A stretch of 37,199 nt of DNA, from the UHGV virus genome UHGV-0267296; one strand, written 5' to 3'. Origin of the DNA: a virus. The notes under the pieces were generated by a model. The model saw nothing but the letters and a program-made list of their open reading frames with translations, was not told the origin of the DNA and did no database searches. The position numbers and the translations under genes were made by a program. Of the stretch, positions 3,349 to 37,199 are shown in pieces; position 1 is the stretch's first letter, and each line of letters starts with the position of its first letter.

Positions 3349-3830
3349 ACAGTGAAGAAATTAAGAAAACTTATAGCATGCGAGATATTTTAGGACGGTA
3401 TGGGATGCAACCGAACAGAGCTGGCTTCATCTGCTGCCCATTCCATAAAGAGAAAACCGCATCCATGAAGATCTATCAGGACAGCTATTATTGCTTCGGA
3501 TGTGGCGCACATGGGGATATTTTTGACTTTGTAAGCCAGATGGAAGATATCACATTCCGGGAAGCATTTTTCAATCTGGGCGGGACATACGAGCAGAAAA
3601 AAGAGACGTTCGGCGAACGAATGTCGCGGTATCACGCCCGGAAAGAGTGGGAGATGCAGCAAAGGCAGAAAGAGAATCTGGAAGAGCGGCGGAAAGTCAA
3701 TAGCGAGCTGATCGACATATATCGAGACTGTCTGATACTTACAGTGCCGCTTTCTGATCTCTGGACGGAAAGCTATAACAAGCTGCAGTATCAACTGTAT
3801 TTACACGAAGTTTTAAATGAACCGAGGTGA
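3345..3830 (+). CDS. CHC2 zinc-finger (DnaG-type primase zinc-binding domain) protein
   Basis: CCPFHKEKTASMKIY..YYCFGCGAHGDIFDFV is the classic CHC2 primase zinc finger. Only 161 aa, so no TOPRIM domain in this ORF. Confidence 0.75.
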   Translation: MNSEEIKKTYSMRDILGRYGMQPNRAGFICCPFHKEKTASMKIYQDSYYCFGCGAHGDIFDFVSQMEDITFREAFFNLGGTYEQKKETFGERMSRYHARKEWEMQQRQKENLEERRKVNSELIDIYRDCLILTVPLSDLWTESYNKLQYQLYLHEVLNEPR

Positions 3831-7453: not shown

Positions 7454-8845
7454 TTGCGAGAGATGAAGAGAGATTTGATAATAGACTGCTTTGCCGGTGG
7501 AGGTGGGGCAAGCGTAGGAATTGAGATGGCGCTGGGGCGATCGGTCGATATTGCAATCAATCACGATCCGGATGCAATTCTGATGCATAAAACGAACCAT
7601 CCGAATACATTACATCTGACAGAAGATATTTTTAGGGTGGATCTGAAAAAATATGTGAAAGGTCGGCATGTGGCTCTTATGTGGGCATCGCCGGACTGTA
7701 CGAGCCATAGCAAGGCGAAAGGGGGGAAACCCCGTGAGAGAGGTCTAAGGATCCTTCCGTGGGCCGTGTATAAGCATACGAAGGCTATCCTACCGGATAT
7801 AATCCTGATGGAAAACGTGGAAGAGATTCAACAGTGGGGCCCGCTTGACGCAGACGGACATCCGATCAAGGAGCGCCGCGGAGAGGATTATCAGAAGTTC
7901 ATAACAGCCATGAAGTCTCTCGGATATGTATTTGACTGCCGGGAGCTTGTGGCAGCAGACTATGGAGCGCCTACAACACGGAAACGTTGGTACGCAATAT
8001 TCCGGCGGGATGGTCGGGAGATTGTCTGGCCGGCACCGACACATTTCAAGGATAGAGAACCACACTGGAAGGCATGCGGAGATTACATAGACTGGTCTGA
8101 TTTGGGACGGTCTATATTTGATAGACCGAAGCCACTGGCAGATGCGACTATGAAGCGAATTGCAAACGGAATTCGAAAATATATCATTGAAAATCCTGCA
8201 CCATATATTGTAAAGGATGGGGGAAAACTGTTTGTTTCATATTTGGACAAGGCATATGGCGGGAATTATGCAGGCTGTGGGAGCGACTTGAGTAATCCGT
8301 GTAGTACTATAACAACTGTGGATCATAACCGACTTGTAACTGCATTTTTGATCCAATACCACGGAGAGACAAAGGCAGGAGAGTCCCGTGGGCAACTTCT
8401 GACGGAGCCAATAAAGACCATAGATACCAGCAATCGGTACGGACTCGTAACCGCATTTATTACAAAGTTCTATAAAAGCGGGATCGGACAGGAATGCGAT
8501 GAACCGTTACACACCATTACAACATCGCCGGGGCATTTCGGACTGGTGAATGTAGTGTTGGATATTGAGGGGGGAAAGTATATCCTGAATGACATCTTCC
8601 TCAGGATGCTAAAACCGGAAGAACTGAAACTGATGCAGGGCTTTCCGAAGGATTACATCATTGACCGGGATTACAGGTGGAAATCATATCCGATTACAAA
8701 ACAGGTGGCACGGATTGGGAACAGTGTTGTGCCGATTATGGCACAGAAACTGGTAGGAGCAAATTGCCCGTATCTGAAGGTTGGAGAACGGTTGCCGAAC
8801 TTCCGAACAGAGGAAGAAGGGAGTGGGCAGATTAGGTTTGCTTAA
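7454..8845 (+). CDS. DNA (cytosine-5)-methyltransferase, orphan
   Basis: Motif I IIDCFAGGGGASVG; motif IV variant WASPDCTSHS (Cys present, PDC instead of PCQ); motif VI LMENVEEI; motif IX LKPEELKLMQGFPKDY; motif X ARIGNSVVPIMAQKL. No restriction endonuclease partner nearby. Confidence 0.85.
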   Translation: MREMKRDLIIDCFAGGGGASVGIEMALGRSVDIAINHDPDAILMHKTNHPNTLHLTEDIFRVDLKKYVKGRHVALMWASPDCTSHSKAKGGKPRERGLRILPWAVYKHTKAILPDIILMENVEEIQQWGPLDADGHPIKERRGEDYQKFITAMKSLGYVFDCRELVAADYGAPTTRKRWYAIFRRDGREIVWPAPTHFKDREPHWKACGDYIDWSDLGRSIFDRPKPLADATMKRIANGIRKYIIENPAPYIVKDGGKLFVSYLDKAYGGNYAGCGSDLSNPCSTITTVDHNRLVTAFLIQYHGETKAGESRGQLLTEPIKTIDTSNRYGLVTAFITKFYKSGIGQECDEPLHTITTSPGHFGLVNVVLDIEGGKYILNDIFLRMLKPEELKLMQGFPKDYIIDRDYRWKSYPITKQVARIGNSVVPIMAQKLVGANCPYLKVGERLPNFRTEEEGSGQIRFA

Positions 8846-10047: not shown

Positions 10048-10797
10048 ATGAATAGCTTTATAAGCTGGATCGGTGGCAAGAAACTACTGAAAAGAAAGAT
10101 CATGGAACAGTTTCCAAAGAATTTTGACAGATACATTGAGGTATTTGGTGGAGCCGGATGGGTACTGTTCGACAAAGAAAAGCATGCGGACATGGAAGTA
10201 TACAACGATGTGAACGGAGAACTGGTGAATCTGTTCCGGTGTGTAAAATATCATCCAGATGCATTACAAAAAGAGCTGGACTGGACGCTGATATCCAGGG
10301 AACAGTTTTTCAACTGTGTTGCCCAAAATGAGATTCAGGGCATGACAGACATACAGAGAGCAGCGAGGTTCTACTGTCGAATAAAACTAAGTTTTGGTGC
10401 TGACCTTGATTCGTTTGGTGTGCGACCGAGGAATATGCAGAAAACAATCGCCTATTTGCAAGAAGCATCGAAGAGATTGAATAGAGTAGTAATTGAGAAT
10501 GTCGATTTTGAGCGTCTTATAAAAACGTATGACCGGGAGTCGGCATTATTTTATTGCGATCCGCCGTATTACGATGCAGAAAAATATTATCCAGACAAGT
10601 TTCAGCCGGAAGATCATGTGAGACTGAGGGATACGCTTTCCCGGATTAAAGGTAAGTTTATCCTGTCTTACAATGACTGTCAGGAGATCCGGGACTTGTA
10701 CGCAGGATATGATCTGATCGAAGTAGATCGGCAGGATAATCTTGTAACGAAAACTAACCCACGTCGTTACAGGGAGTTAATTATAAAAAATTATTAG
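10048..10797 (+). CDS. Dam-family N6-adenine DNA methyltransferase, orphan
   Basis: Starts MNSFISWIGGKKLL (typical Dam N-terminus); FGGAGWV SAM-binding motif; catalytic DPPY (YCDPPYYDAEKYY). RBS gagggttgataaa before ATG 10048. The ORF track extends artificially upstream to 9967. Confidence 0.85.
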   Translation: MNSFISWIGGKKLLKRKIMEQFPKNFDRYIEVFGGAGWVLFDKEKHADMEVYNDVNGELVNLFRCVKYHPDALQKELDWTLISREQFFNCVAQNEIQGMTDIQRAARFYCRIKLSFGADLDSFGVRPRNMQKTIAYLQEASKRLNRVVIENVDFERLIKTYDRESALFYCDPPYYDAEKYYPDKFQPEDHVRLRDTLSRIKGKFILSYNDCQEIRDLYAGYDLIEVDRQDNLVTKTNPRRYRELIIKNY

Positions 10798-16136: not shown

Positions 16137-16730
16137 ATGGAGTGGTTACAGAAAATTTTATCAAATGCGGTTTATGCAGCAGACGGGAAGCTGGATGTGG
16201 AGGCTACCATGAAAAAGGTGAATGAGGAAGCGCCAAAGCATATCATTCCGAAAGAGCAGTATGACGGAAAGGTAAAGGAGCTTGAGACTGCAAATAAGAC
16301 AATCGGGGATCTGAAAAGGAACAATGCCGATAACAAGGAGCTTCAGAAGACGATCAAAACGCACGAAGGGACAATCAAGCAGTTAAAAGTTGACCATGAG
16401 AAAGAGATTAAAGGCATGAAGATCGATGCGGCAATCAATAAGGCGCTTGCGGATAACAATGCGAAACACGCGGAATTACTGGCAGGGAAAATTGACCGTG
16501 AAAAACTGATCGTTTCGGATGATGGAACAGTTTCAGGACTGGACGAGCAGATGAAAGGCTTGAAGGAAAGCTATAAGGATCTGTTTAATCCTGTTTTGTC
16601 AGGAAGAAATCCGGCAAACCCTGACGGAGGTGGTTCAGGGGTAACGGCATTTGATACACTTGTGCAAAACGCCGACAGCATGACAGCCGAAGAAGTGGCG
16701 GCACAGTTTGCGGCGATGGCGAAAGAATAA
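16137..16730 (+). CDS. scaffolding protein
   Basis: 197 aa, highly charged coiled-coil, immediately upstream of major capsid gene; RBS ggaggtaaagaaaa. Confidence 0.7.
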   Translation: MEWLQKILSNAVYAADGKLDVEATMKKVNEEAPKHIIPKEQYDGKVKELETANKTIGDLKRNNADNKELQKTIKTHEGTIKQLKVDHEKEIKGMKIDAAINKALADNNAKHAELLAGKIDREKLIVSDDGTVSGLDEQMKGLKESYKDLFNPVLSGRNPANPDGGGSGVTAFDTLVQNADSMTAEEVAAQFAAMAKE

Positions 16731-25241: not shown

Positions 25242-26114
25242 ATGGAATTAGTAACAGGAAGATCGGGGAAGCCGCACATCACATCACAGCAGGTTCGGCA
25301 GCTTCAACAGGGTATTTTTGGGGCGAATGCCTGTATCCTTAATACGGGAAGTATGCTGACACCGGAAGTGCAGAGCTCAAATAAAATCCGTATCAAAGAT
25401 GGCGCGCTGATGTTTCAGGGTGCTCTCTTTACTGTTAAAGTTGGGGGTTACGATGAGGTAACTATCAACAATGGTAATCAAGGAATGAAGAGAAAAGATG
25501 TGATTGCAGTCAAATATACATATGACTCGTCACGAAACATTGAGTCAGGAGAATGGGCGGTTGTGCAGGGTACGCCAGCGGCAAGTAATCCGGCAGTGCC
25601 TAGTATGCCAGTAACGGATGGAGATATTCAGGCGGGTGATGCAGAAGTGTATTGTCCGGTATTTGTAATTAATTTGGATGGGATAAATGTTACGGGCGTC
25701 GATATCATACCTCCGATGATGGATGATATGTCTACGATAAATAAATATTTGTCGGAGTTGCAGTCGTATCACGATAAAAAGACGCTCACACCAACCGATC
25801 TGGGAATAAGAGCAGGAGTGTGGACAGCCATAGCAAACAACTCGTATAAAATCGGTAAAACGATACACCTAAATATGGAAATTTATACAACTGCCACAAT
25901 AGTCGCGAATAATGTGTACGACAATGTTTTTACGATACCGTCACAGTATCGCCCGTTAAATGATACTGTTGTAAATGTGACAGCGTCAGATGGGTCATAT
26001 AAAAATCCGGTGGCCTGCACATCTATGGCAAGGACAAACGGAAATTTGTTTGTCTGCATCCCAAAAGCTACAAATAATTATCTTTTTATCGATGCGGAGT
26101 GGGAAGTCGGATAG
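25242..26114 (+). CDS. putative receptor-binding tail protein; the C-terminal ~118 aa lie inside an invertible segment
   Basis: 290 aa. A 21-bp inverted repeat at 25739-25759 encodes INKYLSEL inside this ORF; the C-terminus downstream of it is beta-rich (G/S/T/N/Y). Confidence 0.55.
   Translation: MELVTGRSGKPHITSQQVRQLQQGIFGANACILNTGSMLTPEVQSSNKIRIKDGALMFQGALFTVKVGGYDEVTINNGNQGMKRKDVIAVKYTYDSSRNIESGEWAVVQGTPAASNPAVPSMPVTDGDIQAGDAEVYCPVFVINLDGINVTGVDIIPPMMDDMSTINKYLSELQSYHDKKTLTPTDLGIRAGVWTAIANNSYKIGKTIHLNMEIYTTATIVANNVYDNVFTIPSQYRPLNDTVVNVTASDGSYKNPVACTSMARTNGNLFVCIPKATNNYLFIDAEWEVG
25739..25759. repeat. IR-L of putative tail-fibre inversion switch (aaataaatatttgtcggagtt)
   Basis: Perfect reverse complement of 26485-26505; both copies are coding and encode N-K-Y-L-S-E-L in their respective ORFs. 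Confidence 0.8.
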
Positions 26115-26120
26115 ATCTAA

Positions 26121-26597
26121 TCACTTCCAGGTACCTCGAGCATAGTAAGATAAATCAAAACTTGCTACATTCCAGGTCACAGCAGAAAGCAGATGGTATG
26201 AAAAGCTTGATTTGTAGCCATTTGCAGATCCGTACACCTTGCCCCATATCGCGCCGCCAGCTCCTATTGTGAGCACGATATTACATTTTGTTTTTGATGC
26301 AACCGGGAAGTTTAATGTAAATTGTCCGCTTGTGTAAATGCTACCGGCTTTTGTTCCGATCGCGCATGTAAACGGCGAATTGAACCACATTTCGAGAGTC
26401 CCGTCGCTCCATTTGCGATATTTACCGTTGGAGTTGCTACCTTCTTCAACGATGTAGTTTTTTATTTTTGTAAAATCAGATGATAACTCCGACAAATATT
26501 TATTTTTCCAAAAGATTAAGATAAGAAAGGACTGATATTTATGAAGCTTATTTTTAATGATGCAACCGAGATTGTTGTTCAGCAGGTTGAATCCCAC
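26121..26597 (-). CDS. alternative C-terminal cassette (Sv-prime-like) for the receptor-binding protein, encoded on the opposite strand
   Basis: Minus-strand 158-aa open frame convergent with the 25242..26114 ORF (stops 6 bp apart). It contains KNKYLSEL encoded by IR-R. The 121 codons between IR-R and the stop parallel the 118 codons after IR-L on the + gene. Gly/Ser/Thr/Tyr/Trp-rich beta-type composition. The region 5' of IR-R is AT-rich and lacks a convincing RBS. Confidence 0.5.
   Translation of the reverse strand: MGFNLLNNNLGCIIKNKLHKYQSFLILIFWKNKYLSELSSDFTKIKNYIVEEGSNSNGKYRKWSDGTLEMWFNSPFTCAIGTKAGSIYTSGQFTLNFPVASKTKCNIVLTIGAGGAIWGKVYGSANGYKSSFSYHLLSAVTWNVASFDLSYYARGTWK
26485..26505. repeat. 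IR-R of putative tail-fibre inversion switch (aactccgacaaatatttattt)
   Basis: Reverse complement of 25739-25759; 21/21 identical, plus 2 of 3 flanking bases. Confidence 0.8.
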
Positions 26598-27239
26598 GGG
26601 GATTACCTGCGAATACTGACGGTTGGAAATACTCCGGAACAGTTAAAGGTGCTGTTTACTGACTCTAGTCGGACAGCCCGCATGATTGTACAGGAGCGAG
26701 GGCAGACCGTAGCTGCGTATGAGGGATATACAGCATTTTACAGGACGGAGATTTATACCGGGAAGATTTACGGCGTGGTGATGTACAAGCAGGAAACCCT
26801 TCCGGAAACGCAATCGCAGATGATTCAGGCCGCTATGCTGGTTGCACAGATGCAGGCACAGACATTTGATGATGAGCGGGCGCAGGCAGTCAAAATACTC
26901 TATCCGCAGTGGCAAGATGTAATAGGGCAGACTGTTGAGAAGAAAGGGTATAAGTTTGTGTATGAGGATGTGCTGTATAAGACAATTCAAGATAACTTAC
27001 TAATCCAAGAGCAGTATATTCCAGGCGATGGAACAGAGAGCATGTATGTTGTTATTGATGAGACTCATGCCGGCACGCAGGAGAATCCGATTCCGTATGC
27101 GGGCAATATGGAGTTGGAAAAGGGCAAATATTACATCCAGGATGGAGTAATCTATCTGTGTAATAGAGATACAGAAAACCCAGTGTATCATAATTTAAGA
27201 GATTTGATCGGGTTGTATGTAGAGAAGGTGGCAGAATAA
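26541..27239 (+). CDS. hypothetical tail-associated protein (possible fibre assembly/accessory)
   Basis: 232 aa; RBS aagaaaggactgatattt; starts just beyond IR-R. Confidence 0.5.
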   Translation: MKLIFNDATEIVVQQVESHGDYLRILTVGNTPEQLKVLFTDSSRTARMIVQERGQTVAAYEGYTAFYRTEIYTGKIYGVVMYKQETLPETQSQMIQAAMLVAQMQAQTFDDERAQAVKILYPQWQDVIGQTVEKKGYKFVYEDVLYKTIQDNLLIQEQYIPGDGTESMYVVIDETHAGTQENPIPYAGNMELEKGKYYIQDGVIYLCNRDTENPVYHNLRDLIGLYVEKVAE

Positions 27240-27255
27240 GAAAGGCGGGTAGTAT

Positions 27256-27405
27256 ATGGCAGAAATCAAGGAAGTAAAGACGGAAAAAATAACCGTAAAT
27301 ACTGGGGAACGTATCAAGATCAGTTTTGAGTTTTGGTATGAGCAGGATTGCCCTTACGACTATCCACAAGACTACCCGATAGCGAGCGAAAGAAAGTGAG
27401 GAACT
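27256..27405 (+). CDS. small hypothetical protein (49 aa)
   Basis: ATG with RBS agaaaggcgggtag; MAEIKEVKTEKITVNTGERIKISFEFWYEQDCPYDYPQDYPIASERK. Confidence 0.3.
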
Positions 27406-27411
27406 ACTAAT

Positions 27412-28320
27412 ATGAGTGAAATAACAAGAGCTTATGCCGTATATAAAGGACAACAGTATAATGCGTCATACGATTCTGGAACACAGTTATGGGATGTAGA
27501 TATCCCATCAGGATCAGAGTCGTCTTATGGGCAGGTGAATCATACATATCCGATTGAGCTACATGCCTTTGATGCAGCTAACAATGAGACAATCATGTAT
27601 GCCACCGATTCCAAGTATGGAGATCAGTTAAACATCCGTGTACTTGAAAAAACGAAACCGACTGCATCGATTATATCCCCGACACAAGGATCGGTTCTTG
27701 GATCGGCAACGCAGGATATAAAGATGGAGCTTCAAGATGCAGGTGGATCCGGTCTTAACATGACGTCTGTAATCTTCAAAGTTAATAGTGTTCAGGTTAC
27801 ACAGGGCGTGTCATGGACAGATCAGGGCGGCAAGAAAGTATGTACCTATCGTGCAGCCAACTTGTCCGATGGTTCTAATAGCGTTAGTCTGCAGGTAACG
27901 GATAATGATGGCAATATATCCGATGTCGCGACTGTGGCCTTTGTGATTAGTACTTCAGCGCCAACACTGAATGTAACGAGTCCAACCGAAGGGTTATTGA
28001 CGAACAGCAATAGGGTTACCGTAGCTGGTACTGCTGCGGCTGGATCTGATGCGGTAACGCTTACAAGCGTTAAGATTAACGGAGAAGTCGTGTCCTTTGG
28101 ATCAGGTGGGGCGTTTAGTAAGGAGATTACGCTTAGAGAAGGCGAGAATGAAATCACAGTAGTTGCAGAGGACAGCATCGGAAAGACTACATCTGTTACG
28201 AGACATGTCACAGTTGATACCAAAGCGCCGATTATATCTGACGTCGAAGCAGAAGCGACCACGGTAAACGCAAATGGTATGATTCGCTTATCCTTTAAGA
28301 TTGTAGATCCGGCAGATTGA
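27412..28320 (+). CDS. Ig-like (Big-type) domain structural protein
   Basis: 302 aa, Thr/Ser/Val-rich beta-strand repeats (TVAGTAAAGSDAVTLTSVKINGEVV.. ITVVAEDSIGKTTSVTRHVTVDTKAP) typical of bacterial Ig-like folds on tail/virion surface proteins. Confidence 0.5.
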   Translation: MSEITRAYAVYKGQQYNASYDSGTQLWDVDIPSGSESSYGQVNHTYPIELHAFDAANNETIMYATDSKYGDQLNIRVLEKTKPTASIISPTQGSVLGSATQDIKMELQDAGGSGLNMTSVIFKVNSVQVTQGVSWTDQGGKKVCTYRAANLSDGSNSVSLQVTDNDGNISDVATVAFVISTSAPTLNVTSPTEGLLTNSNRVTVAGTAAAGSDAVTLTSVKINGEVVSFGSGGAFSKEITLREGENEITVVAEDSIGKTTSVTRHVTVDTKAPIISDVEAEATTVNANGMIRLSFKIVDPAD

Positions 28321-28321
28321 T

Positions 28322-28687
28322 ATGATTATCAGAGTATGGGGCATTGTAAACTCTACAGAAGTGGAGTTTACGCCCATCCCGGACCGTCCCGGGTACTGGG
28401 AGGGATATGCCCCGCGACTGCCGGGACTGCAGGAAATAGAGGTGTGGGCAGAATCTGACAGCGGACTTAGAGGACATCTGTATTGCACTGTGACGCTTGA
28501 TTATCACGCGCATACAGAGGCGCGGTTACTGGGAGATCGGACGGAGGCAAGATTGATTGATATGGGCGGCAAGGTGCGCTTGTTACTGCTTCCGTGGGTG
28601 GCACAGCTGGTCACGTTCAGAGATGTAAATGTTCTGCAGGAAAATTATATTGCGAAACTGAAAGGTTGCAGAAAGGCGGTGGTATAA
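28322..28687 (+). CDS. hypothetical protein
   Basis: 121-aa ORF overlapping previous stop. Confidence 0.45.
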   Translation: MIIRVWGIVNSTEVEFTPIPDRPGYWEGYAPRLPGLQEIEVWAESDSGLRGHLYCTVTLDYHAHTEARLLGDRTEARLIDMGGKVRLLLLPWVAQLVTFRDVNVLQENYIAKLKGCRKAVV

Positions 28688-28975
28688 TTGCTGGAAAAAG
28701 TCGGATTTGAACTCGGCGAGAAAAAATATGTTTGTATCAGTGTGCGGAGCACAAATGGAAAGCCGTTTGATGTGACATCAGCAAAGTATGTCTTACGGAA
28801 TGGGGAACAGGAAGAGAATCTAGGTACATGTGAAATCATGCAGAAAAGCGATACAGAAACCCTCTTATCTGCACTGATCCAACCGATGATCAAAGGTGGA
28901 TCATACACGCTGGAATTTACATATGAGATTCCGCCGGAGATTCTGAAGCATGAGGTGCGAATATATGTATCATAA
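28688..28975 (+). CDS. hypothetical protein (TTG start in track; start uncertain)
   Basis: 95-aa ORF, last + ORF before terminator at 29003. Confidence 0.35.
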   Translation: MLEKVGFELGEKKYVCISVRSTNGKPFDVTSAKYVLRNGEQEENLGTCEIMQKSDTETLLSALIQPMIKGGSYTLEFTYEIPPEILKHEVRIYVS

Positions 28976-29002
28976 GAGATATGACCACATAGAAATCAGA
29001 GC

Positions 29003-29026
29003 AAGACCGTAACAGGTCTTATTTTT
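29003..29026 (+). terminator. rho-independent terminator ending the structural operon
   Basis: aagacc-gtaaca-ggtctt followed by attttt. Confidence 0.7.
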
Positions 29027-29055
29027 ATGTATAAATTAAAAGAAGGGAGACTTAT

Positions 29056-29268
29056 ATGCCAGACACAGTTGTAGTCGCTGTTTTGTCCTTGCTCGGTACA
29101 CTGATCGGAAGCTTCGGGGGTACACAACTTATCAAATATAGGATTGAGCAGCTTGAAAAGAAAGTAGAAAAACATAACTCTGTTGTAGAGCGGACGTATT
29201 TGTTGGAAGAAAAAATAAAAGTAGCGAATCATCGCATTGATGATTTAGAAAGGGAGGCGAAAGAATGA
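29056..29268 (+). CDS. XhlA-like lysis-associated membrane protein
   Basis: 70 aa: N-terminal TM (VVVAVLSLLGTLIGSFGG) then coiled coil, immediately upstream of holin; RBS aagaagggagac. Confidence 0.55.
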   Translation: MPDTVVVAVLSLLGTLIGSFGGTQLIKYRIEQLEKKVEKHNSVVERTYLLEEKIKVANHRIDDLEREAKE

Positions 29269-29591
29269 ACATGGAACTTTTGATGCAGTATGTAACTTAT
29301 TTACTTATGGCGATTGGAGTATTGGCGTTTTTGACCAGTGTTATCACACAGGTAATAAAAGAGATGCCGGGGTTGAAAAAAATCCAGACAAATGCAGTGG
29401 CACTTGTGGTGGCCTTGATCTTGTGCCCGTTGGCGGTTGTGATTCTATGTATATACTTTAGCATTCAGATAATTTGGTATTATATTGTTGGGGCCATGAT
29501 AGCAGCATTTATAGTATATTTAGTGGCAACCGGTGGCTGGGAAAAAGTCGCAGAGATGTGGCAGCGGACGAAATTTAATAAACACAAATAA
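29265..29591 (+). CDS. holin
   Basis: 108 aa with 2-3 predicted TM helices (LLMAIGVLAFLTSVITQVI; VALVVALILCPLAVVILCIYF; IVGAMIAAFIVYLVA) and basic C-terminus. Confidence 0.7.
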   Translation: MNMELLMQYVTYLLMAIGVLAFLTSVITQVIKEMPGLKKIQTNAVALVVALILCPLAVVILCIYFSIQIIWYYIVGAMIAAFIVYLVATGGWEKVAEMWQRTKFNKHK

Positions 29592-29644
29592 TACGTAAAG
29601 ATACGTGGAAAAAGATTGACATACGTAATGATACGTGATATAAT
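29591..29644 (+). promoter_or_regulatory. consensus sigma70 promoter (TTGACA-17-TATAAT) embedded in two 18-bp direct repeats atacgtaa[a/t]gatacgtg; likely HicB-autoregulated operator
   Basis: -35 at 29616-29621, -10 at 29639-29644; repeats at 29591-29608 and 29621-29638 (ATACGT x4). Confidence 0.6.
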
Positions 29645-29675
29645 ACAATCATGATAAGGAAAGGAGATACAAAAG

Positions 29676-29864
29676 ATGCCAATGACACCGAGAGAGATGA
29701 TAAAACATCTCAAGAAAAACGGGTTTGAGGAAATCAGTCAAAATGGTTCTCATGTAAAACTCAAGAATCAGACGACAGGGATAACAGTTATTGTTCCTTA
29801 TCACTCCAAAGCCATGAAAAAGGGGTTGGAGCAGGCAATATTAAAACAAGCGGGGCTTAAATAG
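29676..29864 (+). CDS. hicA: HicA-family toxin (mRNA interferase)
   Basis: 62 aa; REMIKHLKKNGFEEISQNGSHVKLKN..TVIVPYHSK matches the HicA/YcfA fold signature (catalytic His in GSHVK). Confidence 0.8.
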   Translation: MPMTPREMIKHLKKNGFEEISQNGSHVKLKNQTTGITVIVPYHSKAMKKGLEQAILKQAGLK

Positions 29865-29899
29865 CCCTGCGCCTGAAAAAGAAAGCGGAGGTATTACGT

Positions 29900-30298
29900 A
29901 TGGAAAAATTATTTTATCCTGCAATTTTTCACGAGGCGGAAGAAGGCGGTTTTTGGGTATCCTTTCCGGATTTACCGGAATGCTTAACAGAGGGAGATGA
30001 TATGCAGCAGGCTTATGAGATGGCAGTAGATGCGCTGGGAATCTCTCTTACAAGCAGGAAAGCAGAAGGCGAACTGATTCCAAAACCGACAGAAATAAAT
30101 AAAGTAGATGCGGAAGACGGAATTTTAGCGGTCGTAGAGTTTGATATGATGGAATATCAGAAGAAACACAATTCACGTGCAATCAAGAAGACGCTTAGTA
30201 TTCCGGAATGGCTGAACGAAGAAGCGGTTGCCAGAGGAGTTAATTTCTCACAGGTATTGCAGGAAGCACTGATGCTGAAACTAAATATAGGAAGATAG
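29900..30298 (+). CDS. hicB: HicB-family antitoxin with C-terminal ribbon-helix-helix
   Basis: N-terminus MEKLFYPAIFHEAEEGGFWVSFPDLPECLTEGDDMQQAYEMAVDAL is the HicB/UPF0150 signature; C-terminus LSIPEWLNEEAVARGVNFSQVLQEAL is an RHH DNA-binding domain. Confidence 0.8.
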   Translation: MEKLFYPAIFHEAEEGGFWVSFPDLPECLTEGDDMQQAYEMAVDALGISLTSRKAEGELIPKPTEINKVDAEDGILAVVEFDMMEYQKKHNSRAIKKTLSIPEWLNEEAVARGVNFSQVLQEALMLKLNIGR

Positions 30299-31376: not shown

Positions 31377-31531
31377 GAAATATTGTATCATCTTCATACA
31401 TTATATAAAGAAGTAACAGTTGTAGGTTTTTACGTTAAGGATACCTTATAGAGATATAAAATGATTTGTATGTTGTTACGAAAAGGTTGACCCTTTTGTT
31501 ATAACCTACAAAACTGCGAAAACCCTTGATT

Positions 31532-33013
31532 TTACTGGGATTCCGGCGCATAGTAGTAATAAACTTTCAGCTCATCTTTTGAGCGATCATATATAATCTT
31601 TTCTATCACGCTCTTTAGGATTTCATTTTTGGTTACGGGGTCCACAGAGTCAGATTCTATGATTTCATATACATTTCTTACTTTTTCCAACATAGCGATT
31701 TTAGAAGTATCAATAGTAGGTTCTGCTGGTTTTATGTCTGCAAGCTGCTTTTCCAGCATCTCTTTTTCTTCCTGAACCATGCGCTTATTTTCTTTATATT
31801 CGTCAAGTGTATCTACTCCATTACGGTACGCTTCTCTGATGCGGTCAAATTTTTCCGCATTCTTTCTTAACTGCTCCGTAATAATGACGTTTAGATCCAC
31901 AGAAGTTTCCGGCACCGGTTCAACGTGCCTGTAGATGATGTTGCCACTGTCCAGAACTTCTTTTATGGATGCAAGTACCGCCGGTTCTAACCTTAACGAG
32001 CTTACAGATGTTTTTGCAAGGCATTTTCCTTTTGAGTACCCATAGCATGTAAAATAGCAGTATGATTTTTGGTTACTTACTGTTTTGGCAATCATGGTTC
32101 TTCCGCATACAGGGCACTTCATAAGACCTGATAGCCAATGTTTGTATGTAGAGGAAGGTCTGGCGCCGGAAGGTTTGTATTCGCTTTTGTAACGGATCTG
32201 CGCTTTGTCAAATAATTCTTTAGATATAATAGCAGGTTGCTGACCATCAGAGACAATCCATTCTGATTCCGGTCGGATTTCATTTGTTTCGCTTACGGTA
32301 CGGTTCCATCGGATCATACCGCAGTAAGTTGGGTTCTGTAAGATGTATTCAATAGATCTGCGTTCAAATGGTTTATTGTGAGATGTTTTGAACCCACATG
32401 AATTTAGATAGCGTGCTATGTCGAATATTCCGGTATGTTCATTTACATATTTATCAAATATGATTTTAATTATTTCAGCTTCTTCCGGTACAATAACGGG
32501 AGGCTTTCCACGTTCTTGGATTTTATATCCAAGCGGAGGACGCGCCTGATAGCCGCCGCGTTTTGCCTTTTCTGTCATACCTCGTGTCACTTCGCCGGAA
32601 AGACGGACGGAATAGTACTCGTCCATCCATTCAATGATGCGCTCGATCAAAGAGCCGAACGGACCGTCTACAAGCGGCTCGGAAACGCTTAAAACGTCCA
32701 CATTATGCTTTTTTTTAAGAAGGGACTTATAAACGATAGATTCTTCCTGGTTTCTGGCAAAACGGCTGAATTTCCATACGATGATACAATCGACAGGATG
32801 TTTGTCTGATTTGGCAAGAGCAATCATTTTTTGAAATTCCGGACGTTTATCAGCTTTCCGACCGGAAATACCGAGCTCATAAAAGATTTGCAGGACAATC
32901 ATATCGTTCTTTTTAGCAAAGTCTTTCAACAGTTTTGCCTGCGAATCAGGAGAGAGCTCTTCTTGGCCGGATGTGGATACCCTAACATAACCATAACAAT
33001 ATTTAGTTTTCAT
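31532..33013 (-). CDS. int: large serine recombinase (phage integrase)
   Basis: N-terminal resolvase catalytic domain YGYVRVSTSGQEELSPDSQ (nucleophile Ser), recombinase domain, Cys-rich zinc-ribbon segment (CPVCGRTM..CYFTCYGYSKGKC), coiled-coil C-terminus; 493 aa. Confidence 0.9.
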   Translation of the reverse strand: MKTKYCYGYVRVSTSGQEELSPDSQAKLLKDFAKKNDMIVLQIFYELGISGRKADKRPEFQKMIALAKSDKHPVDCIIVWKFSRFARNQEESIVYKSLLKKKHNVDVLSVSEPLVDGPFGSLIERIIEWMDEYYSVRLSGEVTRGMTEKAKRGGYQARPPLGYKIQERGKPPVIVPEEAEIIKIIFDKYVNEHTGIFDIARYLNSCGFKTSHNKPFERRSIEYILQNPTYCGMIRWNRTVSETNEIRPESEWIVSDGQQPAIISKELFDKAQIRYKSEYKPSGARPSSTYKHWLSGLMKCPVCGRTMIAKTVSNQKSYCYFTCYGYSKGKCLAKTSVSSLRLEPAVLASIKEVLDSGNIIYRHVEPVPETSVDLNVIITEQLRKNAEKFDRIREAYRNGVDTLDEYKENKRMVQEEKEMLEKQLADIKPAEPTIDTSKIAMLEKVRNVYEIIESDSVDPVTKNEILKSVIEKIIYDRSKDELKVYYYYAPESQ

Positions 33014-33674: not shown

Positions 33675-34421
33675 TTATTTACCAATATATAATTCGCAGA
33701 TTTTTTTATCTATTATATTTAAACTTTCATCGCTTAATTTTATACCTGCAAAAGCATCGGAATAATGCAAAGGTTTTGTTATTCGTATTTTGCTAATTGT
33801 TGTGATTTGAGAAACTAAGCCAATGCTTCCAGTTTTCATTAAATCAATTTCTTTTTGCACCTTATCGGCTTCCGTTGTATCTACTGTAAAAGCTATCGTT
33901 ATTTTCTCTCCGGCATACACCGGATTTGGCGATACTTTCACATCTTGAATTGAATTATTGAATTTTTGCATATACTTTTGATGGAGCTTATCATATATTT
34001 CGTTTCCCAAATCAATAGTGAATTTATTAGGTGTGGTATATTCTTTTTTAGATGAAAGAGGAAGTACGGTTAATATATCGGAATAAGGGGAGTCTTTTTT
34101 ATTTAAAACAACCGCATAATGCAATCCGCCTTCTTCATGACCAATACGAAAGCCTAGGTCAACTTGAATAATTTCACCTCTTTTGTATACTTTATTTTTT
34201 GAAGCATCAAATGTTTTTTCTTTTTTAATAAATCTACAATATGTATTGATCCAATACGAAAGCAGATTTACTTTTTTGAGATGGGAATCGTTTTCTGTTG
34301 TGCTGTCTTCAGGTGCTTTTTTAATGTGTGCTTCAAGCAGCTCATTAAGGGTTTTTATAGCTCTTTTTTTATTTCCGATGACCTCATTTTTATCGAAAAA
34401 ATATTTTTCTTTTTGTTTCAT
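33675..34421 (-). CDS. atypically long PemK/MazF-fold protein (249 aa) - toxin/abortive-infection candidate
   Basis: KRGEIIQVDLGFRIGHEEGGLHYAVVLNKKDSPYSDILTVLPLSS matches the MazF/PemK core (RGdIv.vdf..g.E..g.RPalVls). Second conserved block LVSQITTISKIRI ~70 aa later implies an insertion. ATG at 34421 with RBS gagggaag; N-terminal 90-aa extension. Confidence 0.55.
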   Translation of the reverse strand: MKQKEKYFFDKNEVIGNKKRAIKTLNELLEAHIKKAPEDSTTENDSHLKKVNLLSYWINTYCRFIKKEKTFDASKNKVYKRGEIIQVDLGFRIGHEEGGLHYAVVLNKKDSPYSDILTVLPLSSKKEYTTPNKFTIDLGNEIYDKLHQKYMQKFNNSIQDVKVSPNPVYAGEKITIAFTVDTTEADKVQKEIDLMKTGSIGLVSQITTISKIRITKPLHYSDAFAGIKLSDESLNIIDKKICELYIGK

Positions 34422-34500
34422 AGCGTTTTTACTTCCCTCTCTTTCTTTTGTCCCCTGTTCCTTTAACACCACTTTATATAATCGCCGTAGCGGTTATACC

Positions 34501-36720: not shown

Positions 36721-37199
36721 GTGAAGAAATTTGAATTAACAAATGAATTTATTACAAATATGTTCGGGACAAAGCTGTTCCGCATCCGTGCCCTTGTTGA
36801 GTTCGGCGATGTGGAAGCCGGAGAACTTGGCGGGTATGTGGAGAAGGAATCAAACCTTGGTCATGACGACAATGCGTGGGTGTACGACAATGCGTGGGTG
36901 TACGGCAATGCGCTGGTGTGCGGCAATGCGCGGGTGTGCGGCGATGCGCGGGTGTGCGGCAATGCGCTGGTGTGCGGCAATGCGCTGGTGTACGACAATG
37001 CGTGGGTGTACGGCAATGCGCGGGTGTGCGGCAATGCGCTGGTGTACGACAATGCGTGGGTGTACGGCAATGCGCGGGTGTGCGGCGATGCGCGGGTGTG
37101 CGGCGATGCGCGGGTGTGCGGCAATGGGGACTATGCATACGCTCACGGTTTCGGATCTGTCAACCGTACAACGACCTTCTTCCGTCTCAAAGATGGTGG
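36721..37199 (+). CDS. hexapeptide-repeat (N-A-x-V-x-G/D) protein, N-terminal part; runs off the right end and plausibly continues at 2..139
   Basis: GTG start with SD aaaggg; after a 48-aa leader, ~14 consecutive 6-aa repeats NAWVYD/NALVCG/NARVCG/DARVCG then GNGDYAYAHGFGSVNRTTTFFRLKDG; no stop before the window end. Confidence 0.6.
   Translation, partial: MKKFELTNEFITNMFGTKLFRIRALVEFGDVEAGELGGYVEKESNLGHDDNAWVYDNAWVYGNALVCGNARVCGDARVCGNALVCGNALVYDNAWVYGNARVCGNALVYDNAWVYGNARVCGDARVCGDARVCGNGDYAYAHGFGSVNRTTTFFRLKDG
36865..37126. repeat. tandem array of ~14.5 imperfect 18-bp units (consensus gacaatgcgtgggtgtac / ggcaatgcgcgggtgtgc)
   Basis: Directly visible periodicity; causes all six frames to be open locally (minus-strand ORFs 36752..37138, 36850..37146, 36861..37124 are repeat artefacts). 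Confidence 0.9.

Follow-up and report, generated by a model that had tools for sequence, protein, structure and literature searches.

Phage inversion switches that alter host range are classic in the coliphages Mu and P1, and in actinobacterial prophages they take the form of the Rin shufflon. To our knowledge, the invertase is carried by the phage itself in every well-studied case of this kind. The locus described here raises the question of how two alternative ends of a receptor-binding protein (RBP) gene, bounded by inverted repeats, could be exchanged in a phage that has no invertase gene next to the segment. It lies in a stretch of 37,199 nucleotides (UHGV-0267296), which we refer to as a whole as the window and which is a complete 37-kb temperate siphovirus genome. 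A megablast comparison of the locus with deposited phages gave no match.

Architecture of the switch locus

The locus is built around a 21-bp sequence, AAATAAATATTTGTCGGAGTT, of which the window holds two exact copies, IR-L at 25739..25759 on the plus strand and IR-R at 26485..26505 on the minus strand, in agreement with the perfect inverted repeat reported in the first-pass annotation. No further copy was found in the window with up to three mismatches tolerated, and no match to the 21-mer arose in 100 dinucleotide-preserving shuffles. The repeat can be extended to 24 nt at 96% identity. IR-L is coding within a plus-strand open reading frame of 290 aa (25242..26114) and IR-R lies within a minus-strand open frame (26121..26597). 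As had also been noted, these frames are convergent, their stop codons are separated by a spacer of 6 bp (26115..26120), and both read the repeat as the same peptide, NKYLSEL. A 15-bp core, AAATAAATATTTGTC, occupies 25739-25753 in IR-L and 26491-26505 in IR-R.

Upstream of IR-L, the constant part of the RBP gene (Sc, 25242..25738, plus strand) comprises 166 codons for an N-terminal shoulder domain and the start of a linker helix. IR-L is followed by cassette SvA (25760..26114, plus strand; 117 aa and a stop), the head domain expressed in the window orientation, and beyond the spacer lies cassette SvB (26121..26484, minus strand; 120 aa and a stop), the silent head domain expressed after inversion. 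The in-frame fusion of one constant part to either cassette is as originally proposed, but the sizes given then (172 aa, with cassettes of 118 and 121 aa) are corrected to 166 aa plus a 7-aa linker, 117 aa for SvA and 120 aa for SvB. The minus-strand frame is indeed open along its length, but its part upstream of IR-R is a non-coding spacer that reads open, not a separate gene. On the plus strand this spacer (26506..26540) carries the ribosome-binding site of the next gene, and in its minus-strand reading it is the outer flank of IR-R, which is never translated and is conserved among lineages. The next gene (26541..27239, plus strand) encodes a 232-aa product of the tail module with no assigned function and flanks the switch without being a part of it. 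It had been described as abutting IR-R; it starts 35 nt past the repeat and does not abut it, because the gap holds its ribosome-binding site. No Rfam families were found in the window.

Fold searches with an AF2 model of the protein gave a match to the RBPs of lactococcal phages p2 and 1358, which bears out its initial description as a receptor-binding tail protein with beta-rich heads. The protein models as a shoulder, a helical linker holding the crossover site and a lectin-like head. SvB, which forms the C-terminal beta domain in the AF2 model (residues 184-293), matches the C-terminal end of PHROG 2712, 'tail fiber protein' (E 6.5e-15), and searches with the whole model also returned the C-terminal parts of R-pyocin fibres and H-type lectins. 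The SvA and SvB heads putatively confer different receptor or host specificity.

Both orientations in near-identical phages

Among independent assemblies of phages that are all but identical, both orientations of the segment are frequent, which upholds the claim of a two-cassette C-terminal switch with ongoing recombination. One viral contig (L009) equals the window with 25760-26484 reverse-complemented, with a single mismatch over 25502-29845 (4.3 kb), and another (L005) equals the window as it stands. The flipped fusion protein, Sc joined to SvB, has an exact counterpart (P0001, 100% identity and coverage) on 494 contigs, among them an isolate entered as 'bacterium MSK18_59'; a protein 99% identical to it (P0029) bears the name [Ruminococcus] torques. 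Of the collection blocks, 621 list the flipped form and 662 the window state, and in public assemblies the two orientations are about equally frequent.

Orientation is scattered across the phylogeny of the flanks. A flipped and a window-state representative (L028 and L039) show 0 differences in 12.1 kb of flanking sequence, and the nearest neighbour of the window (L034), which is flipped, differs from it at 14 positions in 12 kb of flanks. Both states have exact junctions and an identical segment of 725 bp between the repeats. Additional examples of both states were obtained in a metagenome scan, with some contigs starting or ending at the repeat; breaks of this kind suggest that both states are present inside a single culture or sample.

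In the mechanism that we propose, conservative recombination between the two inverted copies of a short site would flip a 746-bp unit (25739-26484) made up of one repeat copy and the 725 bp between the repeats, and shoulder residues 1-166 would be joined via the helical linker to SvA in the window state or to SvB in the flipped state. Transcription of the late operon would pass through the silent cassette in antisense and on to the next tail gene. The locus is almost certainly an active two-state inversion switch in the RBP gene of a temperate siphovirus whose host, [Ruminococcus] torques, lives in the human gut.

Other lineages with the switch

The flipping pattern is common to three lineages. 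In lineage 2, one contig (L016) is the flipped form of another (L014), with one mismatch in 8.6 kb; the arms of this lineage share an identical stretch of only 15 bp, and the next 6 nt inward move with the cassette. In the L184 lineage, whose shoulder is 45% identical, the repeat is a different 21-bp sequence, AAATAAGGATTTGTCCAATAA, and three contigs are found in one orientation and three in the other, all at 100% identity. Lineages with imperfect arms, represented by 17 contigs (L147-L163), were found in a single orientation throughout. As an observation on the recombinases of these phages, the large serine enzymes are related (65% identical) in both clearly flipping lineages in which they could be checked, the window's and that of L184.

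The cassettes and the site are also found in other contexts. In L123, SvB and SvA stand behind a different shoulder, together with a tyrosine integrase; neither a large serine recombinase nor the 232-aa open reading frame was found there in 10 kb of flank on each side. The SvA cassette family is also attached to other N-terminal types, and the exact 21-mer is joined to at least five unrelated shoulder types and retained while shoulders diverge to less than 40% identity.

The recombination site

The functional core of the site is approximately 15-18 bp long and has the form G-N-N-AAAT-N4-ATTT-N-N-C, an 18-bp frame that begins at 25736 in the window. In the lineage-2 pair (L014/L016), the crossover is confined to the 15-bp core. 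All 14 arms, from seven lineages, retain G at -3 and C at +15, including where these bases fall in an outer flank that is never translated or at the third position of a codon. Within a genome the two arms share their central bases, although these vary from lineage to lineage; L019 has a Tyr-to-Cys change in each of its arms. A pattern of this kind would be expected from a site-specific recombinase whose crossover region depends on homology. The reaction is probably site-specific rather than homology-driven, and against this counts that the conserved site bases overlap in part with conserved codons (Asn, Leu, Ser).

Comparison by eye with dif/Xer sites and with the site of recombinase-bearing relatives gave AT-rich partial matches that are not significant, and a 19-mer scan of species-representative genomes returned single chance hits in unrelated taxa, none of them informative. 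Deletions of the whole segment (L012, L018 and P0059) were considered as products of a symmetric crossover at the AAATATTT palindrome, but their junctions are 4 nt shorter than this predicts; they fit a 5-nt microhomology (TATTT / AAATA). A loss of 4 nt in P0057/L211 was likewise considered as half of a reciprocal misaligned exchange; because the other arm is normal, we regard it as a simple slip in the AAATAAAT tandem.

Recombinase content of the genome

Pfam and PHROG scans, or precomputed Pfam assignments, covered every plausible open reading frame of at least 90 aa. Within this scope, the only recombinase in the 37-kb window is a large serine recombinase of 493 aa, the integrase (31532..33013, minus strand; Pfam Resolvase, Recombinase and Zn_ribbon_recom), which confirms the earlier statement that no invertase gene lies nearby and that this integrase is the sole recombinase. 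It sits 5 kb from the segment, and the window holds no second Resolvase-domain protein and no PF00589 protein. A tblastn search with the tyrosine recombinase of the relatives gave no hit in the window, nor in any locus of the window type, and no reverse transcriptase appeared in any scan of the window. The attP of the integrase, near 31485-31492 (..GTTACGAAAAGGTTGAC|CCTTTTGTTATAAC..), is a typical long imperfect palindrome, TGTATGTTGTTACGAAAAGG TTGAC CCTTTTGTTATAACCTACA; a kinship between attP and the repeat was considered and dropped, the two showing no likeness by inspection. The 232-aa product has no Pfam match, its PHROG matches (30034, 12931 and 27545) are all of unassigned function, and its AF2 model (pLDDT 50) consists mostly of beta strands with one helical stretch.

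Alternative explanations of the inversion

As the sole recombinase of the 37-kb genome, with an N-terminal domain that matches a PHROG 'DNA invertase' family and a 65%-identical counterpart on the clearly flipping L184-type contigs, the integrase might double as the invertase and use the repeat as a second site pair. We consider this improbable. Large serine integrases pair an unlike attP and attB and require only a matching central dinucleotide, and for this reason such an enzyme explains neither the identical arms nor the matched central bases; its attP, moreover, is unlike the repeat. L123 combines the site and the cassettes of the window with a tyrosine integrase. In three prophages in the flipped state (L027, L029 and L034), the match to the window ends about 100 bp short of the attP crossover point, and these prophages lie at other host loci. 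Close relatives of the L184 lineage, on contigs with the same recombinase family, have no repeat at the linker. The 232-aa product, which the first-pass annotation had offered as a hidden recombinase, is a highly improbable candidate for the flipping enzyme. Its gene begins 35 nt from IR-R, is without an assigned function and is conserved beside the switch in the window lineage, but neither its family matches nor its low-confidence, mostly beta model points to a recombinase. The L184 lineage flips with only a 115-aa homologue of its N-domain. In relatives with a tyrosine invertase of their own, this N-domain also comes after the variable region, and in L123 the gene is missing from the 10 kb of flank on each side of the cassettes.

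Inversion might also be driven by homology with no dedicated enzyme, through host RecA, through the Erf-like annealing protein of the phage (1616..2416) with its SSB, or by template switching during replication. The phage genome has genes for Erf, SSB and an ERCC4-type nuclease, the region also undergoes the microhomology deletions and the 4-nt slip, and arms that are identical within a genome and different between lineages would also be maintained by exchange or gene conversion; the imperfect-arm lineages, moreover, are all in one orientation. On the evidence of the site itself, however, this route is unlikely. An identity of 15 bp is enough, whereas RecA-type exchange at useful rates needs identity far longer than that. 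The two states are about equally common and differ between prophages with zero flank differences, and both the G at -3 and the untranslated outer flank are conserved across lineages, neither of which pure homology requires; the exact 21-mer, too, is kept while the shoulders fall below 40% identity. A frozen relic had been among the options first listed; on such a reading, the two orientations would be artefacts of assembly or lineages that became fixed long ago. This reading can appeal to the fact that the evidence for both states comes from separate assemblies and not from the reads of one sample, but it is scarcely credible and is refuted by opposite states between near-identical prophages: these differ at 0-14 positions in 12 kb, across many samples, assemblers and isolate genomes, with exact junctions, an identical segment in both states and the same pattern in three lineages.

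Origin of the recombinase

The analysis establishes the anatomy of the locus, the joining of either cassette in frame to the shoulder, the RBP fold, an exact inversion at the repeats and, for three lineages, recurrent flipping in the recent past. Taken together, these findings are likely best explained by the inversion mechanism proposed above. We infer both the site-specific character of the reaction and its operation in trans, and on balance we lean toward an enzyme supplied from outside this phage genome. The most likely candidate is an invertase that is encoded by the host or by a co-resident element and acts in trans, possibly of the Xer/Rin-like tyrosine type, by analogy with the enzyme that relatives carry in cis. 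More tentatively, a recombinase of the Lachnospiraceae chromosome or of a co-resident element may recognise the 18-bp frame and set the receptor of the progeny, with the site serving as a universal joint that moves head pairs between at least five unrelated backbones.

The switch belongs to a highly prevalent temperate phage of a gut Firmicute that degrades mucin, and this phage swaps its receptor-binding head at a high rate with no invertase of its own. If the enzyme does act in trans, the tropism of a gut phage would hang on a gene outside the phage, with a bearing on host-range prediction from phage genomes and on strain-level phage-host dynamics. The switch also affects how such phages are represented, as short-read assemblers break or collapse at the locus and gene callers give either of two proteins, or truncated forms, for one phage.

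Comparison with other inversion systems

Thirteen loci with RBPs 34-46% identical to that of the window encode an armless tyrosine recombinase of 329 aa inside a four-site shufflon. A homologue search with this recombinase returned about 1900 gut-metagenome proteins, without organism assignment. The window's shoulder is 30.6% identical to an RBP-like protein of Bifidobacterium phage PMBT6, which has a tyrosine recombinase in its tail module. In Bifidobacterium and Eggerthella lenta prophages, the Rin shufflon acts on a siphovirus RBP whose constant N-terminal part is related to the RBP of lactococcal phage 1358, and each of its short, promoterless, C-terminal, lectin-like cassettes is directly preceded by a short site at which inversion takes place (Mavrich et al. 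2018, PMC6109161; PMC8778435). The window phage resembles this system in its constant shoulder of the 1358/p2 type, its short lectin-like variable cassettes and a crossover site of 15-21 bp at the 5' end of both cassettes. The sequence of the site, however, is unlike rix, with AAATAAATATTTGTC in the window, TTCCCTAACCC in the bifidophages and CTGAAYTAARTAGCAA in the recombinase-bearing relatives. The window phage also has no rin gene or armless tyrosine recombinase anywhere in its 37 kb, two cassettes (SvA and SvB) between a single site pair instead of several, and a Lachnospiraceae Firmicute rather than an actinobacterium as its host. Because distant relatives of its RBP carry an Xer-like tyrosine invertase in the variable region, we regard it as a rin-less, two-cassette relative. 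An IS200-type transposase beside the RBP of Clostridium phage phiCs5676-1 was rejected as a part of a switch; with a flanking repeat of its own, it has the appearance of an ordinary insertion.

The logic of the Mu G and P1 C segments (Sc plus Sv or Sv'), to which the locus was originally likened, does apply, in that a constant part is fused in frame to alternative C-terminal parts. In Mu G, P1 C, e14 P and p15B Min, a serine invertase of approximately 190 aa (Gin, Cin, Pin or Min) is encoded beside the segment, and segments of the Mu/P1 type have 26-bp gix/cix-type sites, a Fis-dependent enhancer and fibre-assembly genes (U/U') inside. The window segment, in contrast, has no such invertase beside it and no U/U' genes within it, and its protein is a siphovirus RBP unrelated to the Mu/P1 fibres. 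The gix/hix-like 26-bp site is of the TTATCNAAAACC-NN-GGTTTTNGATAA type, with which the window site, GATAAATAAATATTTGTC, shares by inspection only an AT-rich, imperfectly palindromic character. The locus is also unlike a diversity-generating retroelement, as it has no reverse transcriptase and the inverted 21-mer is its only repeat.

Invertases that act in trans have been described in gut bacteria. RecV of Clostridioides difficile is such an enzyme, with one protein serving many loci, and Mpi of Bacteroides fragilis is a global invertase that flips invertons in trans (cited in PMC6109161). Like the invertons of Mpi and RecV, the window segment flips at short inverted repeats with no adjacent recombinase gene, whereas the targets of these enzymes are host promoter or gene switches and the target here is a phage structural gene. 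In prophages, a segment of about 500 bp, which spans a small gene in opposed orientation and the 3' end of a gene of the tail region, was found inverted between two prophages at an 8-bp repeat; no recombinase flanks it, and an invertase acting in trans was proposed by the authors (2018, PMC6109161). The window switch likewise inverts with no flanking recombinase. The earlier example concerned one prophage pair and genes with no identified function, whereas here the RBP is identified by its fold, and three lineages and numerous independent assemblies show flipping at a defined site.

The RBPs of lactococcal phages p2, TP901-1 and 1358 consist of a shoulder, a linker (neck) and a small beta-sandwich head that binds a cell-wall saccharide. 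By its fold matches, the window RBP has the same overall build, and lactococcal heads also swap between phages at the linker; there, however, the heads are exchanged by evolution or engineering, and in the window RBP by a built-in inversion switch. With its site of 15-18 bp and its small cassettes, the locus forms a compact natural scaffold for the swapping of RBP heads.

The inverted repeat brackets two alternative head cassettes

The 21-mer AAATAAATATTTGTCGGAGTT occurs exactly twice in the window, at 25739–25759 on the plus strand and at 26485–26505 on the minus strand. Further copies with up to three mismatches are absent from the window and from 100 shuffles, and the repeat lengthens to 24 nt if one mismatch is allowed. 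The two copies lie in convergent frames with stops 6 bp apart: the receptor-binding protein (RBP) gene at 25242..26114, assigned to the plus strand by the first-pass annotation and encoding 290 aa, and an opposed open frame on the minus strand at 26121..26597. Both frames translate the repeat as NKYLSEL, which bears out the earlier claim of a perfect 21-bp inverted repeat within two convergent frames. The RBP is composed of a constant part of 166 aa, a 7-aa linker, and a cassette; SvA (117 aa) is expressed in the window, and SvB (120 aa) is silent.

An AF2 model of the constant shoulder (Sc) fused to SvB (pLDDT 81) displays two beta domains with a helix between them at residues 163–179, residues 166–173 of which are encoded by the repeat. 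Fold searches with this model also matched the C-terminal parts of R-type pyocin fibres, gp53 of phage AP22, and H-type lectins, and SvB matched the C-terminal end of a PHROG tail-fibre family. The two heads presumably bind different receptors. At least eight cassette families are found behind the same linker, and near-identical SvB or SvA cassettes sit on at least five unrelated N-terminal types in different phage backbones; the linker site thus also serves as a joint for the exchange of heads between phages.

Both orientations are common in nature

Scanning IMG/VR with the 21-mer, we identified one contig identical to the window (L005) and another (L009) that corresponds to the window with 25760–26484 reverse-complemented, with 1 mismatch across 25502–29845. 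The predicted flipped product, Sc+SvB of 293 aa, is matched at 100% identity and coverage in the protein collection, on 494 contigs, so that the in-frame fusion to the second cassette proposed in the first-pass annotation does exist. Exact-sequence look-up of collection blocks returned 621 for the flipped form and 662 for the window form, and the 16 prophage loci, mostly at one common host site, divide into eight per state.

Orientation is scattered over a tree of 12.1 kb of flanking sequence: the flipped L028 and the window-state L039 have 0 differences in these flanks, and the window's nearest neighbour, L034, is flipped at 14 differences. Flipping is therefore recent and has occurred many times over, and the ongoing recombination suggested earlier is substantiated by these opposite states at 0–14 flank differences. 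A metagenome scan added more cases from lineages 1 and 2, again in both states, with some contigs starting or stopping at the repeat, as they should where an assembly encounters a mixture of orientations. The window switch is well documented as active and is unusually prevalent.

Other lineages narrow the crossover point

Lineage 2 carries cassettes with 87% and 68% DNA identity to those of the window, and one of its contigs (L016) is another (L014) flipped, with 1 mismatch in 8.6 kb. Identity between its two arms is limited to a 15-bp core, AAATAAATATTTGTC, and the six bases beyond this core (ACAATT versus GGAGTT) travel with the cassette, which places the exchange inside the core. In lineage 3 (L184), the shoulder shares only 45% identity, the cassettes are different, and the repeat reads AAATAAGGATTTGTCCAATAA; three of its contigs are in one state and three in the other, all at 100% identity.

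In an alignment of both arms of seven lineages, the frame G-N-N-AAAT-N4-ATTT-N-N-C is kept in all 14 arms. Its G at −3 occupies a third codon position in the coding arm and falls in never-translated sequence in the silent arm. The central bases vary by lineage (AAAT, AAGG, GCGG, GCAT) and are equal in both arms of one genome, and both arms of one contig (L019) carry a Tyr-to-Cys change. In the window lineage, the 18 bp of the frame form a 16/18 palindrome centred on AA. Recombinase core sites usually consist of conserved arms flanking a variable but matched centre, the layout seen in this alignment. As evidence, this counts for less than it seems to, since some of the conserved bases fall in conserved codons for Asn, Leu, and Ser.

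Phage genome and integration site

The window covers all or nearly all of a temperate siphovirus genome. It encodes an Erf-like annealing protein, SSB, an ERCC4-type nuclease, a primase-helicase, two DNA methyltransferases, terminase, portal, capsid, tape measure, and Dit, with a 334-aa minor tail protein at the usual siphovirus position of the tail-associated lysin (Tal). Behind the switch gene come a 232-aa ORF and the gene of an Ig-domain protein, and the genome also carries holin-like genes, HicAB, and genes for an amidase, a PemK-like protein, and a repressor. The HicA/HicB toxin–antitoxin pair (29676–30298) lies between the holin-like genes and the endolysin, and the 265-aa protein with the PemK/MazF-like domain (33675–34472) adjoins the integrase; both are probably accessory genes expressed by the lysogen. 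Near the window end, in the early region, 36870–37126 consists of a G+C-rich 18-bp unit, CAATGCGCGGGTGTGCGG, repeated in tandem 14.3 times with 89% matches. The opening bases of the window resemble this unit, and the array may continue across the window cut; it could represent origin iterons or a repetitive coding stretch.

In long contigs, the prophage copies stop shortly past the amidase gene, which places the attP crossover near 31485–31492. The hosts named in the records are [Ruminococcus] torques and "bacterium MSK18_59". Most prophages adjoin a PG_binding_1 gene, leuS, and a sialidase gene (L028 and others, ~16244). Three near-identical phages (L027, L029, and L034; ~16140–16150) part from the window already at ~31381–31389 and reside elsewhere in the host, next to a GH95 gene or a gene for a Na/H exchanger, which indicates that their integration module has been swapped.

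Candidate sources of the flipping enzyme

At 13 loci with RBPs 34–46% identical to that of the window, the variable region encodes a tyrosine recombinase of 329 aa, in which PF00589 is combined with a SAM-like N-domain and an arm-binding domain is lacking. These relatives have four sites with the consensus CTGAAYTAARTAGCAA, and at L202 a 57-bp inverted repeat encloses the recombinase gene itself. The enzyme is absent from the available flanks of all loci with window-type sites and from the whole window genome, in which a large serine recombinase of 493 aa, encoded on the minus strand, is the sole recombinase, in agreement with the earlier statement that no invertase gene lies nearby. The suggestion of a hidden recombinase in the 232-aa ORF (26541..27239) is not credible.

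We lean toward an enzyme supplied in trans by the host or a co-resident element. Flipping by the phage's own large serine integrase would be in line with the 65%-identical homologue in the L184 lineage, but enzymes of this type pair unlike sites, and attP is an imperfect palindrome without relation to the repeat. Moreover, L123, a phage with the same cassettes behind a different shoulder, carries a tyrosine integrase, and the flipped L027, L029, and L034, at their other host loci, part from the window ~100 bp before the attP crossover point, making this role of the integrase distinctly improbable. Inversion driven by homology, with no dedicated enzyme, is also unlikely: a 15-bp arm is enough, the two states occur at about the same frequency, and conservation extends to bases beyond the identical core, even if the matched-arm pattern and the single orientation of 17 contigs with imperfect arms are compatible with it. 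Unknown phage factors or mixtures take up the remaining probability.

Relation to known inversion systems

The window switch operates on the same principle as the Mu G and P1 C segments. These and the Rin families are defined by a cognate invertase in cis, which the window switch lacks. Rin shufflons have been described in Bifidobacterium and Eggerthella prophages, and their architecture is that of the 13 recombinase-bearing relatives (PMC6109161, PMC8778435). Bifidobacterium phage PMBT6 has both a shoulder homologue at 30.6% identity and a Rin-like tyrosine recombinase. The window switch is an evolutionary relative of Rin shufflons, and its nearest published parallel is a second inverted locus in two bifidoprophages, which has no recombinase and was proposed to depend on an invertase acting in trans (PMC6109161). 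Tail-fibre genes appear among the targets of programmed inversion in systematic surveys (PMC9881135); an earlier description of this Lachnospiraceae phage switch was not found in the literature searched.

Firmicute gut phages contain a Rin-like four-site RBP shufflon with the recombinase gene within the invertible unit (L202 8318–9574, L169 7509–10170), and further such shufflons are found at L166, L168, L170, L176, L178, L179, L181, L182, L199, L205, and L207. The L169 contig contains an N and a duplicated stretch from the beginning of the cassette precisely at its shufflon site (7640–7660), probably a scaffolding artefact from mixed orientations. Homologues of the 329-aa recombinase are very abundant in gut metagenomes, many on ~1.2–2-kb contigs, as assemblies broken at flanking repeats would give. 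At L200 (7914–8306) and L204 (3947–4339), only the C-terminal 131 residues of the recombinase are detectable, adjoining an RBP gene without a repeat; these loci may be decaying shufflons, a possible intermediate toward recombinase-less forms. The isolated [Clostridium] scindens phage phiCs5676-1, whose RBP shoulder is 35% identical to that of the window, has an IS200-type Y1 transposase gene (OR574845.1 14128–14556, equivalent to L212 6248–6676) that is flanked by a 12-bp inverted repeat of its own and is inserted immediately behind the RBP gene and a short ORF of opposite direction.

Variants at the locus

Two otherwise near-identical phages (L012 and L018, both 10498–10520) have lost the whole invertible segment, equivalent to deletion of window 25752–26505, leaving a truncated 175-aa RBP without a head domain. 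Their junction, GATAAATAAATATTT joined to TTCC, fits a deletion between 5-nt direct repeats at the two arms, TATTT, or the mirror AAATA in the headless RBP P0059. P0059 represents 37 member sequences; headless variants thus recur or circulate.

One AAAT unit of the AAATAAAT tandem is missing, in IR-L only, from the flipped-state phage L211 (3495–3500, equivalent to window 25739–25746) and from protein P0057, whose cluster has 35 member sequences. In L211 the loss frameshifts the RBP to 178 aa; it may reflect simple slippage or may serve as an extra OFF state. Finally, a close relative with a 99%-identical integrase on the same contig (L145) carries a 36-bp inverted repeat (2840–2875 and 3615–3650) that takes in, on either side, the outer flank that is normally non-coding, as though neither cassette were in the expressed configuration; the contig cuts the locus at the repeat.
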